Of a stretch of DNA of 64,000 nt, positions 42,827 to 47,988 are shown one piece after another. The stretch lies in sequence record OZ336096.1. The stretch is one strand, 5' to 3'. The first letter of the stretch is position 1. Each line of letters starts with the position of its first letter. The position numbers were made by a program, and so were the translations under genes. Below the pieces are notes generated by a model, which worked only from the letters and a program-made list of their open reading frames with translations, did not search any database and was not told the DNA's origin. The stretch is from a phage.

Positions 42827-42916
42827 AAAGTACTTTACAAGGGGCTTAAAAGCTGATATCTTAAGCCCCAGATAAAGAGCTTTACTAAATTAACCCTTAA
42901 ACTAGGAGATTCAAAA
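42827..42916 (+). promoter_or_regulatory. conserved cassette intergenic unit (hairpin + RBS leader)
   Basis: AAAGTACTTTACAAGGGGCTTAAAAGCTGATATCTTAAGCCCCAGATAAAGAGCTTTAC...CCTTAAACTAGGAGATTCAAAAATG; GGGGCTTAA..TTAAGCCCC hairpin. Confidence 0.6.
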
Positions 42917-43297
42917 ATGGCTTATCGTGCACCGAAATTCATCAACAAAGACAACTTCCGCAACGCACTGGAGAAGTCACTTGGTGAAAAATTTAACGGC
43001 AAATTGATTGTTGTTCACGCATTCAATTTTAAGTATGATATTAACGGGAATAAAATCAACCATTACACGGCAACCATGTTAGATGGTACGCTATCAAGTG
43101 AAAAAGCCGTACTGAATGCACTTGCAGGACGTGGTAAAAACCTGATAAGATGCGATAAGAGACGTTATCAGGGTGGCGCATATGGTTATGATGATGCTGT
43201 TTATCATCTTGAAAATATGGGCTATTCAGTGGAAAAAGCTGGAGTGTCTCAAATAATCGGCAGTGACGGCTATGTGACAATTTTCAAAATTAACTGA
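42917..43297 (+). CDS. hypothetical protein (cassette gene)
   Basis: 126 aa ORF directly after the conserved leader. Confidence 0.5.
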   Translation: MAYRAPKFINKDNFRNALEKSLGEKFNGKLIVVHAFNFKYDINGNKINHYTATMLDGTLSSEKAVLNALAGRGKNLIRCDKRRYQGGAYGYDDAVYHLENMGYSVEKAGVSQIIGSDGYVTIFKIN

Positions 43298-43387
43298 TAA
43301 AGTACTTTACAAGGGGCTTACAGTTCGATAAAGTAAGCCCCAGATAAAGAGCTTTACCACTAAATCCTAAATTGGAGAATCTGAAAA
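43298..43387 (+). promoter_or_regulatory. conserved cassette intergenic unit
   Basis: Same unit with variant hairpin GGGGCTTACAGTTCGATAAAGTAAGCCCC. Confidence 0.6.
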
Positions 43388-43645
43388 ATGGCTATTATCA
43401 AAAACGTTGTAGTTCCTGCAAAAACTCGTGATGACGCTCGCATCATGGCGAAAAAGTTAGGCGGGAAAGTTGTTGACAATGGAAAACAATCTGCTGTAAG
43501 ATGGGGAGTAAAGGCTGATAAACAACTAACCTTAAAACGCAGTTCAAACAACCTTTTTAAAGGTGTAAAATCACTCGGTAAAGTGAACGTGTTTACCAAA
43601 AAAGGCTATAAAATGCACTTATCATTAACTGGCAATTTAATCTGA
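43388..43645 (+). CDS. hypothetical protein (cassette gene)
   Basis: 85 aa ORF after conserved leader. Confidence 0.5.
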   Translation: MAIIKNVVVPAKTRDDARIMAKKLGGKVVDNGKQSAVRWGVKADKQLTLKRSSNNLFKGVKSLGKVNVFTKKGYKMHLSLTGNLI

Positions 43646-43733
43646 TAAAGTACTTTACAAGGGGCTTAAAAGCTGATATCTTAAGCCCCAGATAAAGAGC
43701 TTTACCACTTAATCCTAAACTGGAGATTCAAAA
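43646..43733 (+). promoter_or_regulatory. conserved cassette intergenic unit
   Basis: Near-identical copy of unit at 42827. Confidence 0.6.
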
Positions 43734-44030
43734 ATGAAATTATCAAATGAAGTTAGGGAAAATCTAAGCAAGTTACTCAACAAAATTGATTTTATTGAGA
43801 CCTCAAGAAATACTCATGAGGTTATGGAATGGTTACACGGCAAAATAAAAGGCCGTCGTGTGGTGATTTGCTTATGGAATAGTTGCAGGGAGTATAAAAA
43901 ACCTGTATTACAAATTAATATTTATGATAATACTTTTAAAAGCCCTGTAAAGTCGAAAAGCGATTTATTAGAATCCTATGAGATAACTGTAAGTGGCAAG
44001 GTATCACGTAAGGAGGGAACACCATGCTAA
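43734..44030 (+). CDS. hypothetical protein (cassette gene)
   Basis: 98 aa ORF. Confidence 0.5.
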   Translation: MKLSNEVRENLSKLLNKIDFIETSRNTHEVMEWLHGKIKGRRVVICLWNSCREYKKPVLQINIYDNTFKSPVKSKSDLLESYEITVSGKVSRKEGTPC

Positions 44031-44356
44031 TGACTGGCATCACCGCAATCATAGCCATTATGGCGCTATATAAGGCATATAAAGCCTATAATCTAGCAGA
44101 TGAGGCAATCACGCAGCAGGTTAGCAATAGCCTTGTAGAGAGCTTTCTAGAGCGTTTAAGCGATGAGCAAATAAAGCGGCTAGAGATGAGCTTCAGATTT
44201 CAATCAAAAACTTATCAAATCAGCGACATTTTCAAAGATGATTTTCAGCTTGTCGATGATTATAACTCTCTGATAAATGCTTTAAATATCAGTGACTTAA
44301 AAGATTATTACGCTGTAATTGTTCAAGAAATGAGCAAACGAAAACAAAAAGCTTGA
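44024..44356 (+). CDS. hypothetical protein
   Basis: 110 aa ORF overlapping previous stop; N-terminal hydrophobic stretch. Confidence 0.45.
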   Translation: MLMTGITAIIAIMALYKAYKAYNLADEAITQQVSNSLVESFLERLSDEQIKRLEMSFRFQSKTYQISDIFKDDFQLVDDYNSLINALNISDLKDYYAVIVQEMSKRKQKA

Positions 44357-44445
44357 CACTGGTTTTTATGTAGGTTAAATTACACATCAACGGGGGGCGA
44401 TAACCTCCCCACTAGATAAAAGCCCTTAAACTAGGAGATTCTAAA
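44352..44445 (+). promoter_or_regulatory. cassette unit type 2: sigma70-like promoter (TTGACA-17-TAAATT) + leader hairpin + conserved RBS
   Basis: TTGACA 44352-44357, TAAATT 44375-44380, hairpin CGGGGGGCGATAACCTCCCC, then CCTTAAACTAGGAGATTCTAAAATG. Confidence 0.55.
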
Positions 44446-44718
44446 ATGTATACTACTAACAACGGTCGCACCTTAAACGTAACCCTGCGCCACTATGTAG
44501 ACGGTGTCATGCACTTTGAAGATTTACAGGCTGAGACTCACATCTTAGATTGGCAACTAGCAGGACTCCAAAAAACTGCTACCGGATACGGTAAAAAGAT
44601 TCCAACTAGTTGGAAAGTATACTATGAAGGCCGTTTGCGCAGAATTTATCAGGATGTTTGCAGCAATAGCGCATCGACTTACATCATAGTAAAAGGTAAA
44701 AAGCTGCATTTAGTGTAA
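44446..44718 (+). CDS. hypothetical protein (cassette gene)
   Basis: 90 aa ORF. Confidence 0.5.
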   Translation: MYTTNNGRTLNVTLRHYVDGVMHFEDLQAETHILDWQLAGLQKTATGYGKKIPTSWKVYYEGRLRRIYQDVCSNSASTYIIVKGKKLHLV

Positions 44719-44804
44719 AGTACTTTACAGGGGGCTTAAAAGTTGATATCTTAAGCCCCAGATAAAGAGCTTTACCACTAAATCCTAAATTGGAGAACTT
44801 AAAA
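44719..44804 (+). promoter_or_regulatory. conserved cassette intergenic unit
   Basis: Copy of the GGGGCTTAAAAG..TTAAGCCCC unit. Confidence 0.6.
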
Positions 44805-46440: not shown

Positions 46441-46531
46441 ACAAGCCTGATAAAAGTCTGTAAATTGTCAATCAACGGGGAGGGAATGACCTTCCCCACT
46501 AAGTAAAATCCTTAAACTAGGAGATTCAAAA
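46441..46531 (+). promoter_or_regulatory. cassette unit type 2 (GGGGAGGGAATGACCTTCCCC hairpin + conserved RBS)
   Basis: CTGTAAATTGTCAATCAACGGGGAGGGAATGACCTTCCCCACTAAGTAAAATCCTTAAACTAGGAGATTCAAAAATG. Confidence 0.55.
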
Positions 46532-46873
46532 ATGGCCCACGTAACTGTAATTACCAATAAACCGGATTCATCTTGGTCAACTCAAGTAAGTGACAAGATG
46601 ACACCTATGCAGTGCCTAAAATACTTCGAGCAATGGAATAAAGGCGAGGATATCAGCCCCTTTCAAGTGATGCAGATTATACATGTGGACAATGAAGGCA
46701 ATAAAACGGTTTTAAATAGTGAGCACTATGCAACCCGATTTGAAACGAGATGTAAAGCAATGAAGCTTCTACGTGAATCCGGTTACTCCCATATCGCCGC
46801 ACTAATCTGGGATGACCTGCTAAAAAACCAACGTATCAGCTATGTAAAACCTGAAAAAATATTCATCAGTTAA
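46532..46873 (+). CDS. hypothetical protein (cassette gene)
   Basis: 113 aa ORF. Confidence 0.5.
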   Translation: MAHVTVITNKPDSSWSTQVSDKMTPMQCLKYFEQWNKGEDISPFQVMQIIHVDNEGNKTVLNSEHYATRFETRCKAMKLLRESGYSHIAALIWDDLLKNQRISYVKPEKIFIS

Positions 46874-46895
46874 TCAATAACTTACAAAAAACTTT

Positions 46896-46924
46896 TAAAA
46901 AAGTGTTGACAACGCCCCTTGACA
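46896..46924 (+). promoter_or_regulatory. sigma70-like promoter
   Basis: TTGACA - 17 nt - TAATGT; second candidate TTGCAA-17-TAAATT at 47003-47031. Confidence 0.45.
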
Positions 46925-47094
46925 TTGATAATGTTGTTCGAGGGGGTTTATCTAAAAGGGATTAACTTAAAAGATTCTTTATAGATAAGCTCAAAAAAAT
47001 TGCTTGCAATCCGCTATCAAAACAAGTAAATTACTAATCAACGGGAGGTAATGACCTCCCCACTAAGTAAAATCCTTAAACTAGGAGACTCAAA

Positions 47095-47625
47095 GTGAAC
47101 AAGTTCAAAGCTATCAATTACATTCGTTCAAATGCTGTAATGTCAAAGCCTGTCAAAGATACCTACGAATTTCGCTGTAATGGTGTACACTTTGCAACCA
47201 TCACCAAATCAGGAAACGGGGCTTATTACGTTCATCGTCGTAATGTCGCAACCGTTGTAGTCTCTCATTTTATGCAAGCTGTCGCAGAATTATTACCGTT
47301 ATTCTTAGAGATTTACTTAGATGAGTGTAAAAACGTTCGCAATCACGTTAAAAACCTTTTAAATAGTTATAAAATGGCTTATGAACGTTCTATTAAGTCA
47401 TTGAACAAGTTTTATAAAGCCCCTGTAAATACTGTTTCAATGGCCTATGCTGCAAATGGTGAGGTGGTGAGTCTCTTTGAAGTGGAAGAAATCAAGCTGC
47501 ATGATTTACGCACTAGCGGTTACTCTAAGACTCTCGGTGAAGGTTTAACGTTCAATATCAAGAACTTAGAAAAAACTTTAAAAGATATTGAAAAAGATAT
47601 TGACGAGACAATCAAAAATCTGTAA
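47095..47625 (+). CDS. hypothetical protein (cassette gene)
   Basis: 176 aa ORF with GTG start after conserved leader (..CTAGGAGACTCAAAGTG). Confidence 0.45.
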   Translation: MNKFKAINYIRSNAVMSKPVKDTYEFRCNGVHFATITKSGNGAYYVHRRNVATVVVSHFMQAVAELLPLFLEIYLDECKNVRNHVKNLLNSYKMAYERSIKSLNKFYKAPVNTVSMAYAANGEVVSLFEVEEIKLHDLRTSGYSKTLGEGLTFNIKNLEKTLKDIEKDIDETIKNL

Positions 47626-47705
47626 ATTGTCAATCAACGGGGAGGGAATGACCTTCCCCACTAAATAAAGTCCTTAAACTACTTCCTAAACTGGAGAATC
47701 TAAAA
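47626..47705 (+). promoter_or_regulatory. cassette unit type 2
   Basis: Copy of CTGTAAATTGTCAATCAACGGGGAGGGAATGACCTTCCCC leader. Confidence 0.55.
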
Positions 47706-47954
47706 ATGGCAACTATCCGCGCTACTGTTAACGAGTTCGGTTTTTCCTCTCTGGATGTTAAATTTGACATTGCAGGCACTGATAACGCCTTTGAAATGGT
47801 GAAAGGTCTTATCAGTCAGACCATCAAAGATTATAATCCTTCGGATGAGTTCTGGGAGGAAACAAAACAAGAAGTTCTCAAGGATGGTTATACTTATCAC
47901 TATTGGGGAGAAAAAATCGTCTCCCTGTACTACAACAAACAAGGTTATAACTAA
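47706..47954 (+). CDS. hypothetical protein (last cassette gene)
   Basis: 82 aa ORF; terminator follows. Confidence 0.5.
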   Translation: MATIRATVNEFGFSSLDVKFDIAGTDNAFEMVKGLISQTIKDYNPSDEFWEETKQEVLKDGYTYHYWGEKIVSLYYNKQGYN

Positions 47955-47988
47955 TCGACGCAGCGGGGCTAAATAGCCCCAGATACCT

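Follow-up and report, generated by a model that had tools for sequence, protein, structure and literature searches.

Repeated promoter-hairpin-leader units likely form exchangeable gene cassettes in an early locus of Felix O1-like phages

In a Felix O1-like phage, a 5.5-kb locus of small genes is punctuated by repeated units of about 90 nt. We analyzed this locus in a stretch of 64,000 nucleotides from sequence record OZ336096.1 (hereafter, the window) and consider it likely to be a hyperplastic early-gene locus built from self-contained expression cassettes. Each unit would combine a promoter of the host sigma-70 type with an RNA hairpin and a conserved Shine-Dalgarno leader running up to the ATG start codon. 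The units recur with invariant hexamers and spacing, and the stem of one unit type covaries. Among related phages, cassette insertions and deletions (indels) end within units, unit variants form mosaics, and the locus varies more than control regions of equal length. From these patterns, we infer promoter activity, transcript ends, and the roles of the hairpins and genes.

An array of 13 genes and 11 units

The window comes from a Felixounavirus. Positions 42500 to 48000 matched 254 phage records, nearly all of them from Felix O1-like myoviruses, including phages of Escherichia coli, Salmonella, Shigella, and Citrobacter. The best matches were all Ounavirinae (Felixounavirus and Mooglevirus), and the closest match to the array region was Escherichia phage REP5 (Felixounavirus; 89.6% identity). 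As in Felix O1-like genomes, the window carries 24 tRNA genes, clustered at 58606-63556 on the + strand, and two group I introns that score above the Rfam gathering score (6945-7177, - strand; 23604-23954, + strand). The array is the counterpart of Felix O1 genes 14 to 23, which are bounded by the published terminators t13 and t23 (PMC3185647).

Thirteen small open reading frames (ORFs; w2 to w14) lie between terminators at 42143 and 47993. The left boundary is an intrinsic terminator that ends the upstream operon (42143-42193, + strand); it has a 17-bp stem and a T-run and is the same sequence as Felix O1 t13 (PMC3185647). An initial annotation, made from the sequence alone, had described about twelve genes starting at 42827, nearly every one preceded by one of two types of ~90-nt unit. 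The array proved to be real, and 11 of its 13 ORFs have a private upstream unit, but it starts earlier, at 42543, with a founder unit and a 68-amino-acid (aa) ORF at 42620-42826. The 11 units comprise one founder promoter, five type-1 units, and five type-2 units. Every unit is on the + strand, all are confined to this one locus, and each occupies the entire stop-to-start gap between adjacent genes (85 to 100 nt).

The founder unit (42543-42619, + strand) reads TTGACT-17-TAATAT, followed by a weak GGGC/GCCC hairpin and a leader of the L1 class described below, ACTTCCTAAACTGGAGAATCAAA. In relatives that lack w2, the founder promoter bears a full type-2 hairpin (AYO145A, 1681; SP22, 1940). At the other end of the array, a degenerate type-1 remnant (GGGGCTAAATAGCCCCAGATA) is followed by the terminal intrinsic terminator AGCCCCTCATAGGGGCTTTTTT, a homologue of Felix O1 t23 (47966-48015, + strand). 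The remnant, at 47966-47986, consists of a hairpin and CCCCAGATA without a -35 element, stands immediately before the terminator, and is like the "degraded" promoter-early stem-loops (PeSLs) of T4-like phages.

Units in genomes were typed with nhmmer profiles. Profile searches found no further copies outside the array in the 64-kb window, and none in the 22.5 kb that they covered of the ~25 kb of REP5 sequence beyond it. A scan of IMG/VR for type 1 beyond this phage group returned only six stretches, all in contigs of 84 to 89 kb, which is the size of Felix O1-like genomes.

Promoter-like elements and leaders

The type-1 core, GGGGCTTAA-N11-TTAAGCCCCAGATAAAGAGCTTTAC, was matched five times (42841, 43313, 43661, 44731, and 45525), with 0 matches expected. 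The corresponding units, all on the + strand, span 42825-42916, 43297-43387, 43645-43733, 44715-44804, and 45509-45597. Unit 1 is a chimera of a type-1 body and an L2 leader, with its -35 at 42834, its -10 at 42857, and a three-tier hairpin. Unit 2 has a differing loop, in which the -10 is TAAAGT, and a compensated stem (TTAC/GTAA). Only a hairpin had initially been ascribed to type 1, the promoter being assigned to type 2. That distinction did not survive, as type 1 also reads as a promoter (TTTACA-17-TAnnnT), with window copies of either TTTACA-17-TATCTT or TTTACA-17-TAAAGT. In an alignment of 45 distinct copies (18 genomes: the window plus 17 relatives, among them Mooglevirus and an Erwinia phage), the -35 sequence CTTTACA was invariant. 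Seventeen nucleotides on, the T and A of the -10 were also invariant, and the T at its sixth base was present in at least 90% of copies. The -10 and loop otherwise varied, with TATCTT, TAAAGT, TAAGAT, TAGTAT, TACCTT, TACAGT, and TATAGT all represented. A fixed T-A and a conserved final T amid a varying loop is the pattern of a sigma-70 -10 element. A generic promoter scan called all five type-1 sites in the window, with a TG just upstream of the -10 in four of them.

The type-2 core, TAAATT-N5-TCAACGGGGRGG, also had five matches (44376, 45240, 46461, 47027, and 47623; 0.03 expected). Units 1 (44353-44445; hairpin at 44392-44410, L2 leader) and 2 (45217-45308; hairpin at 45256-45273) both read TTGACA-17-TAAATT. 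In unit 3 (46438-46531; hairpin at 46477-46497), the -35 is TAGACA, which overlaps the stop codon of w11, and the -10 is TAAATT. Unit 4 (47004-47094; hairpin at 47043-47060) reads TTGCAA-17-TAAATT and precedes a GTG start. The -35 of unit 5 (47600-47705; hairpin at 47639-47659), TTGACG, lies within the coding sequence of w13, and the leader of this unit is an L2 fragment fused to L1. All five are on the + strand. The 17-nt spacing and the -10 first proposed for type 2 were thus upheld, but an exact TTGACA occurs in just two of the five units.

Across 88 type-2 copies from 17 genomes, all had a TTGACA-like hexamer (TTGACA, TTGCAA, TAGACA, TTGACG, or TTGATT) 17 nt from TAAATT; the -10 of type-2 units in Mooglevirus is TAAAGT. 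The repeat common to type-2 units spans only the interval from about the -10 to the ATG, while the -35 and the spacer vary by position. Two of the -35 elements in the window lie in, or at the end of, upstream coding sequence, and a -35-like hexamer is still always present. That a -35 is kept within variable or coding sequence is, in our view, a good if indirect sign that promoter function is under selection. Four of the five type-2 sites in the window were called by the generic promoter scan. For both unit types, the 22 nt upstream of the -35 are A+T-rich (75 to 77%, versus 61% for the window).

The units end in one of two related leaders, L1 (TCCTAAAYTGGAGA) and L2 (CCTTAAACTAGGAGA). A single near-identical leader for both unit types had been proposed; the relatedness held, but there are two variants. 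The leader quoted in that proposal fits four units with at most one mismatch, and six others, including the founder, carry TCCTAAAYTGGAGA. A fifth copy of the quoted type, at 47071 before the GTG of w13, lay beyond a search that allowed 3 mismatches. L1 and L2 each occur in free combination with the two unit bodies, and the leader of a given gene is not of the same type in all genomes. In all units, a GGAG stands 8 to 9 nt before the ATG or GTG. Separately, each leader class keeps 3 to 4 bases that are complementary to its own Shine-Dalgarno sequence a few nucleotides upstream of it (42597-42619 and every unit leader). The resulting mini-hairpin pairs (UCC..GGA, CCU..AGG, CCUU..AAGG, and CCUC..GAGG) are weak, would sequester the Shine-Dalgarno sequence, and appear to covary between classes. 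Two unrelated-looking leader classes of an Erwinia-type contig also keep such complementary bases.

Hairpins of the two unit types

The type-1 RNA is predicted to fold into a 60-nt structure of 20 bp, with helices of 6, 5, and 9 bp separated by 1x1 and 3x3 internal loops (-20 to -27 kcal/mol; z-score, -3.5 to -5.5). The 5' lower arm contains the -35, the loop holds the -10, and the start is predicted to fall in the 3' arm. Because all three are within the hairpin, the complete structure would exist only in read-through RNA from an upstream promoter. There, it may serve as an intercistronic processing site or a 3'-protecting structure, rather than as a terminator.

In 46 of 49 distinct copies, the type-2 hairpin begins 10 nt beyond the -10, straight after an invariant CAAC. 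Its stems vary in length, so each copy was folded singly and no alignment was used. Twenty-two different arm pairs were found across copies, several of them with G·U pairs on the sense strand. If transcription starts 6 to 8 nt past the -10, the hairpin would sit ~2 to 4 nt from the 5' end of the predicted transcript, where it could act as a 5'-terminal stabilizer of its own message.

It is also conceivable that the hairpins are terminators or insulators, as in T4-type PeSLs, in which case the genes would be strictly monocistronic and the hairpins would have no part in stability or processing. The annotators of phage ASO1A labeled the type-2 hairpin, directly after the promoter, as a rho-independent terminator (WebGeSTer). 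The stems are G+C-rich, and the stem-loops of RB49 PeSLs terminated transcription in reporter tests (PMC2839356). Yet among ~155 scored unit hairpins, the 8 nt that follow never contained more than three T's, and a terminator scan called none of them; lacking a U-tract, none is a canonical terminator. Furthermore, the type-2 hairpin lies downstream of its own promoter, where a real terminator would abort its own transcript, and the type-1 hairpin holds its own -10. We therefore view this explanation as unlikely, and we think the label in ASO1A is wrong. The stronger form raised with the initial annotation, in which the units are simple terminators without promoter activity, was rejected: there is no U-tract, and the -35 and -10 hexamers and their 17-nt spacing are invariant.

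A U-tract does follow the boundary terminators at 42143 and 47993. It is partly developed at a terminator-like hairpin inside the array (46173-46192, + strand), which we read from the sequence as AGCCCCTTACAGGGGCT plus TTT, a short U-tail, with the GGGAGG ribosome site of w11 directly after it; the terminator scan did not call this hairpin. Rfam 15 contained no family for either unit hairpin. Elsewhere in the window, the Rfam matches were the tRNAs and the two group I introns, and the only match at 42000-48200 was a chance microRNA hit under the gathering score (E = 0.054).

The pairing of the type-1 arms is under evident constraint. In the alignment, 96.1% of pair cells were paired, compared to 32 to 56% when the partners were slid. 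Two-sided changes occurred at five pairs spread over both helices; among them, columns 8/58 and 21/45 go from G-C to U-A, and columns 23/43 occur as C-G, U·G, and U-A. The observed covariation score was reached by none of 500 shuffles, and since MAFFT mis-registered eight one-base-shorter variants, the counts are slightly conservative. On the sense strand, G·U pairs outnumbered A·C pairs 78 to 11. Together, the covariation and the excess of sense-strand G·U pairs indicate that the hairpin probably acts in RNA, and the G·U bias points to a structure of the sense-strand RNA rather than a DNA operator or an antisense RNA.

These data bear on the idea that a dimeric protein, of phage or host origin, binds the type-1 inverted repeat as a DNA operator and thereby shuts off early promoters, as proposed for the extended start-associated sequences (ESAS) of cluster K mycobacteriophages. 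The arms CTTTA and TAAAG, which bracket the -35 and the predicted start, do not vary in sequence. No mechanism of temporal control is known for Felix O1 (PMC3185647), and ESAS repeats have been argued to bind protein (PMC3203893). An operator would be expected to conserve sequence rather than pairing, and ESAS repeats were noted for lacking covariation. With compensatory changes in both helices and a strong wobble bias on one strand, an operator seems quite improbable to us.

Cassette variation among related phages

A comparison of the region across related phages had been suggested as a check on whether the repeats drive shuffling of genes in the hyperplastic style of T4-like phages. We made this comparison by mapping cassettes in the window and in 17 relatives. 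The region was not perfectly syntenic, and gain and loss of cassettes occurred at the repeat boundaries; the positions of the junctions and the excess variability relative to flanking sequence both support the proposal. Whole genes were present or absent while the intergenic gaps held at 85 to 92 nt. For example, Felix O1, Bas63, and others have a 170-aa gene (x2) between w4 and w5, and the w9-w10-w11 block is absent from Felix O1, JLBYU32, and FG1m. Other genomes have extra genes (x6, x9, and x18), and w2, w3, w4, and w13 are each missing somewhere.

All six indel junctions that were aligned had both ends inside units and left a single chimeric unit. The Felix O1 unit between w8 and w12 joins the promoter half of the w8/w9 unit to the hairpin and leader of the w11/w12 unit. 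Likewise, the w4/w5 unit of the window equals the w4/x2 unit of Bas63 as far as their common ATGAAA. In the last unit of the window, the L1 leader to which the L2 fragment is fused is identical to that of w2; this fusion looks like a recombination scar. From one genome to another, w3, w12, x9, and x16 are preceded by different unit body types and most genes by different leader types, and tandem "solo" units occur in E9, Mordin, SP116, and KPS64. Hairpin variants are scattered over positions and genomes, with the same variant found at different positions. One such variant (10), which differs by one base, occupies three paralogous positions in KPS64 where Mordin has variant 04. Units at the same position in different genomes were on average 81 to 85% alike (range, 56 to 98%), compared to 86 to 90% for the genes they flank, and paralogous units within one genome were up to 96% alike.

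The array was also far less conserved as a whole. Only 29 of 254 relatives (11%) covered at least 80% of it in one place. Equal-length controls were covered to this extent in 181 of 249 relatives (a repeat-free block of small genes at 50200-55700) and 219 of 276 relatives (the left flank), or 73 to 79%. The first of these controls belongs to a block on the - strand (49619-56343) whose small genes are packed stop-to-start in operon-like fashion, without repeated intergenic units and with content that is much better conserved among relatives. This block is a natural internal control for the array.

Could the units be purely regulatory and alike by selection, with the cassette variation arising from unrelated illegitimate recombination or horizontal transfer? 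Strong constraint on the hexamers and leader alone would keep units alike, and some junctions do look illegitimate, such as the L2-fragment/L1 fusion (47670-47690) and the truncated leaders of the tandem units in E9. The six indels argue otherwise, as each ended within units and left one chimeric unit. So do hairpin and leader variants that are neutral for pairing, which are shared by paralogous positions in one genome and differ at the same position between genomes. Because the adjoining repeat-free block of small genes is also far less variable, we doubt strongly that selection on regulatory function alone accounts for the pattern.

There is a further scenario to which we assign a very small chance. 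The type-1 unit may be dual coded, as a DNA promoter and a covarying RNA hairpin, with the hairpins of both unit types recognized by a dedicated phage factor. That factor could be an RNA-processing enzyme that makes stable single-gene messages from nested polycistronic early RNA, or it could be a structure-specific recombination function. Under the latter option, a strictly lytic phage would have, in this locus, a cassette exchanger resembling an integron instead of a passive substrate for general recombination.

A most improbable reading has the units as small mobile elements, or as targets of a site-specific recombinase that recognizes structure, as with integron attC sites. In its favor, the units are imperfect hairpins whose internal loops are conserved, each cassette has one, all share one orientation and lie downstream of a strong founder promoter, and PeSL authors raised a similar idea (PMC2839356). 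Against it, we saw no target-site duplications, the units are restricted to this locus in contigs of 84 to 89 kb only, and crossover points are scattered from the -10 to the ATG instead of falling at one position. On the grounds of their single orientation, single locus, and lack of target duplications, we likewise rejected units resembling miniature inverted-repeat transposable elements.

Genes of the array

All 13 ORFs fell into PHROGs families of "unknown function", and none had a Pfam match above threshold. Sequence searches of the PDB with w3, w8, w10, and w13 found no match with an E value below 0.4. Together with a Foldseek search described below, these results agree with the initial assessment that none of the products has a recognizable function. 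All of the genes are on the + strand. The first three are w2 (42620-42826; 68 aa, phrog_5293, found in 170 phage records), w3 (42917-43297; 126 aa, phrog_4495), and w4 (43388-43645; 85 aa, phrog_5089). The next two, w5 (43734-44030; 98 aa) and w6 (44024-44356; 110 aa), overlap and form a two-gene cassette (43734-44356) that is inseparable in relatives; from this arrangement, w6 looks translationally coupled to w5. They are followed by w7 (44446-44718; 90 aa, phrog_3436), w8 (44805-45209; 134 aa, phrog_4327, 234 records), and w9 (45309-45512; 67 aa, phrog_3623, 189 records), the last of which is missing from Felix O1, JLBYU32, and FG1m. Beyond w10 (45598-46140; 180 aa, phrog_3303), w11 (46207-46440; 77 aa, phrog_4640) is preceded by the short-tailed terminator-like hairpin and not by a unit. 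The array closes with w12 (46532-46873; 113 aa, phrog_4318), w13 (47095-47625; 176 aa, phrog_4725), and w14 (47706-47954; 82 aa, phrog_4559). Since these ORFs come from different families, we rejected the idea that the repeats are a by-product of gene duplication.

The w10 product is a homologue of Bas63 g107. In a knockout screen of Bas63, PhageMaP characterized this region as holding scattered small hypothetical genes that differ in essentiality, and g107 was needed more on E. coli S17-1 (PMC11482910). A protein search with w10 returned 41 homologues, none with an informative name; the named ones all came from Shigella, Enterobacteria, or E. coli records. Within Felixounavirus, two divergent alleles of w10 (~95% and ~55% aa identity) occupy one cassette position. 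Homologues also occur in ~92-kb Pseudomonas phages and in Vibrio and Erwinia phages, where all are annotated as hypothetical. The AlphaFold model of w10 was poor (predicted local distance difference test [pLDDT], 55), and with this model, Foldseek found no PDB hit with an E value below 2. The published hint that g107 is Tpt1-like (PMC11482910) is thus neither supported nor refuted.

Neighboring sequence

Just upstream of the array, the gene at 41328-42113 encodes a macro-domain protein (Pfam Macro; E = 1e-7) that is annotated as a "phosphatase" and has homologues in more than 2000 phage records. Between the upstream terminator and the founder promoter, a 350-bp spacer contains three copies of TCATTTTAGAATTGTGCAGGTAG, two of them identical (42187-42366), and a 12-bp tandem, TCTGTAGAGAAA x2 (42213-42236). 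Downstream, a 1.6-kb noncoding gap between convergent gene blocks (48020-49600) is packed with CTTGTTA/CTGTTAAG-type repeats, which are phased at ~11 bp and occur in both orientations. A gap of ~1.6 to 1.9 kb occurs at the same place in those relatives whose compared locus extends that far. Possible roles for this gap are as an origin of replication, a site for packaging, or an array bound by protein. Finally, this Felix O1-like array is also present, at ~90% identity, at 130425-135401 of GenBank record GU169904.1 (147 kb, "Staphylococcus phage SA1"), a record that looks chimeric or contaminated.

Discussion

We propose that the array is maintained by exchange between its own units. With the same 60 to 90 bp in one orientation between every gene, unit-to-unit recombination and gene conversion would follow. 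Homologous recombination or gene conversion of this kind could delete, insert, replace, or reorder whole genes, and every gene would stay correctly expressed afterward. The outcome would be a variable stock of accessory genes that probably serve in host takeover or counter-defense.

Several observations weigh against our overall reading of the locus. The type-1 -35 doubles as a helix arm, so its conservation could be partly structural. Covariation was counted on related, nonindependent sequences, one of which also supplied the structure. The -10 hexamers fit the consensus at just 3 to 5 of 6 positions, and promoter-like matches in the region were modestly above chance (28 versus 17.9 ± 4.2 expected). 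By reverse transcription-PCR, Felix O1 ORFs 16, 20, 21, and 22 were detected at 5 min and ORFs 14, 17, 19, and 23 at 25 min (PMC3185647), a timing that does not follow unit type. Recombination was deduced from end products, and no intermediates were seen. A literature search found no transcript 5'-end, promoter-fusion, RNA-processing, or RNA-seq (transcriptome sequencing) data for any Felix O1-like phage, so promoter activity and the roles of both hairpins are predictions here.

Two known RNA elements offer parallels to these predicted roles. Between the cistrons of the multi-promoter early transcript of phage T7, RNase III sites are irregular hairpins of ~20 bp with internal loops. In its predicted fold, the type-1 RNA has this shape, with three helices and two internal loops, although the T7 sites lack promoters and have no sequence similarity to type 1. 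The ompA mRNA carries a stabilizing stem-loop at its 5' terminus, where the proximity to the 5' end blocks 5'-end-dependent attack by RNase E. The type-2 hairpin would have a similar placement, given a start predicted from the position of the -10 alone.

As a system, the array most resembles the PeSL cassettes of T4-like phages (Arbiol 2010, PMC2839356; Comeau 2014, PMC4122927). Both have intergenic composites of ~100 bp with an A+T-rich stretch, sigma-70-type hexamers spaced at 17 nt, a stem-loop of G-run and C-run, a Shine-Dalgarno sequence, and an ATG, and the type-1 hexamers match the promoter consensus of T4/PST PeSLs, TTTACW-17-TAYWAT (PMC4122927). In both, a hyperplastic region of small genes of unknown function differs between close relatives by indels and replacements that end in the motifs and leave chimeric motifs behind. 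However, the stem-loop of a PeSL lies upstream of the promoter and terminates transcription, whereas in the array it is part of the promoter (type 1) or follows the promoter closely (type 2) and has no U-tract. The array also differs in belonging to Ounavirinae rather than a T4-like myovirus, and in having two intermixed unit families and two leader variants at one locus rather than several regions. PeSL function has been tested by experiment, and recombination between adjacent PeSLs gives rise to chimeric motifs and to excised mini-circles; the array is known here from sequence, in which chimeric units and mosaic variants are seen. The proposed likeness to PeSLs therefore applies to the behavior of the locus but not to strict membership, and we do not file the locus as a PeSL because the defining upstream terminating stem-loop is lacking. 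The best description, on present sequence comparisons, would be a PeSL-like cassette array in Ounavirinae with a new promoter-hairpin arrangement.

A second likeness is to the start-associated sequences (SAS) and ESAS of cluster K mycobacteriophages, in which a conserved sequence with a Shine-Dalgarno core precedes, in one orientation, the starts of varied nonstructural gene families and some copies follow an imperfect inverted repeat (Pope 2011, PMC3203893). The SAS is a 13-bp consensus, GGGATAGGAGCCC, located 3 to 7 bp before starts, and the leaders described here (TCCTAAACTGGAGA) are unrelated to it in sequence. The 17-bp inverted repeats of ESAS do not preserve RNA pairing, whereas the type-1 arms covary (five pairs compensated; 96% of cells paired). 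Moreover, the units described here hold promoter hexamers and mark indel junctions.

Parts of these units have been noticed piecemeal before, but the whole has not. Whichard et al. (2010) listed, without comment, direct repeats of 57 bp and 39 bp between Felix O1 genes 15/16, 19/20, 18/19, and 20/21 (PMC3185647), and the Mordin genome note likened a 26-bp leader to SAS (Guan 2015, PMC4611695). Some GenBank records label type-2 promoters. A full-text literature search for the unit sequences recovered these two papers only, and literature that mentions PeSLs concerned T4-like phages or did so in passing. Our analysis unites the Felix O1 repeats, the "SAS-like" repeat of Mordin, and the "promoter plus terminator" labels of ASO1A.

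The finding overturns nothing; its value is as a tidy, testable system. Type 1 would be a compact case in which selection acts jointly on the promoter and RNA-structure roles of one sequence. Typing, biocontrol, and therapy of Salmonella and E. coli make wide use of Felix O1-like phages. Since gene content differs most at this locus, it is a place to seek determinants of host range and counter-defense, and its units may provide ready-made, self-expressing landing pads for engineering. If our reading is correct, PeSL-type cassette shuffling is not specific to T4-like phages, and would represent a convergent or more general route to a fast-evolving accessory toolbox in large lytic phages.

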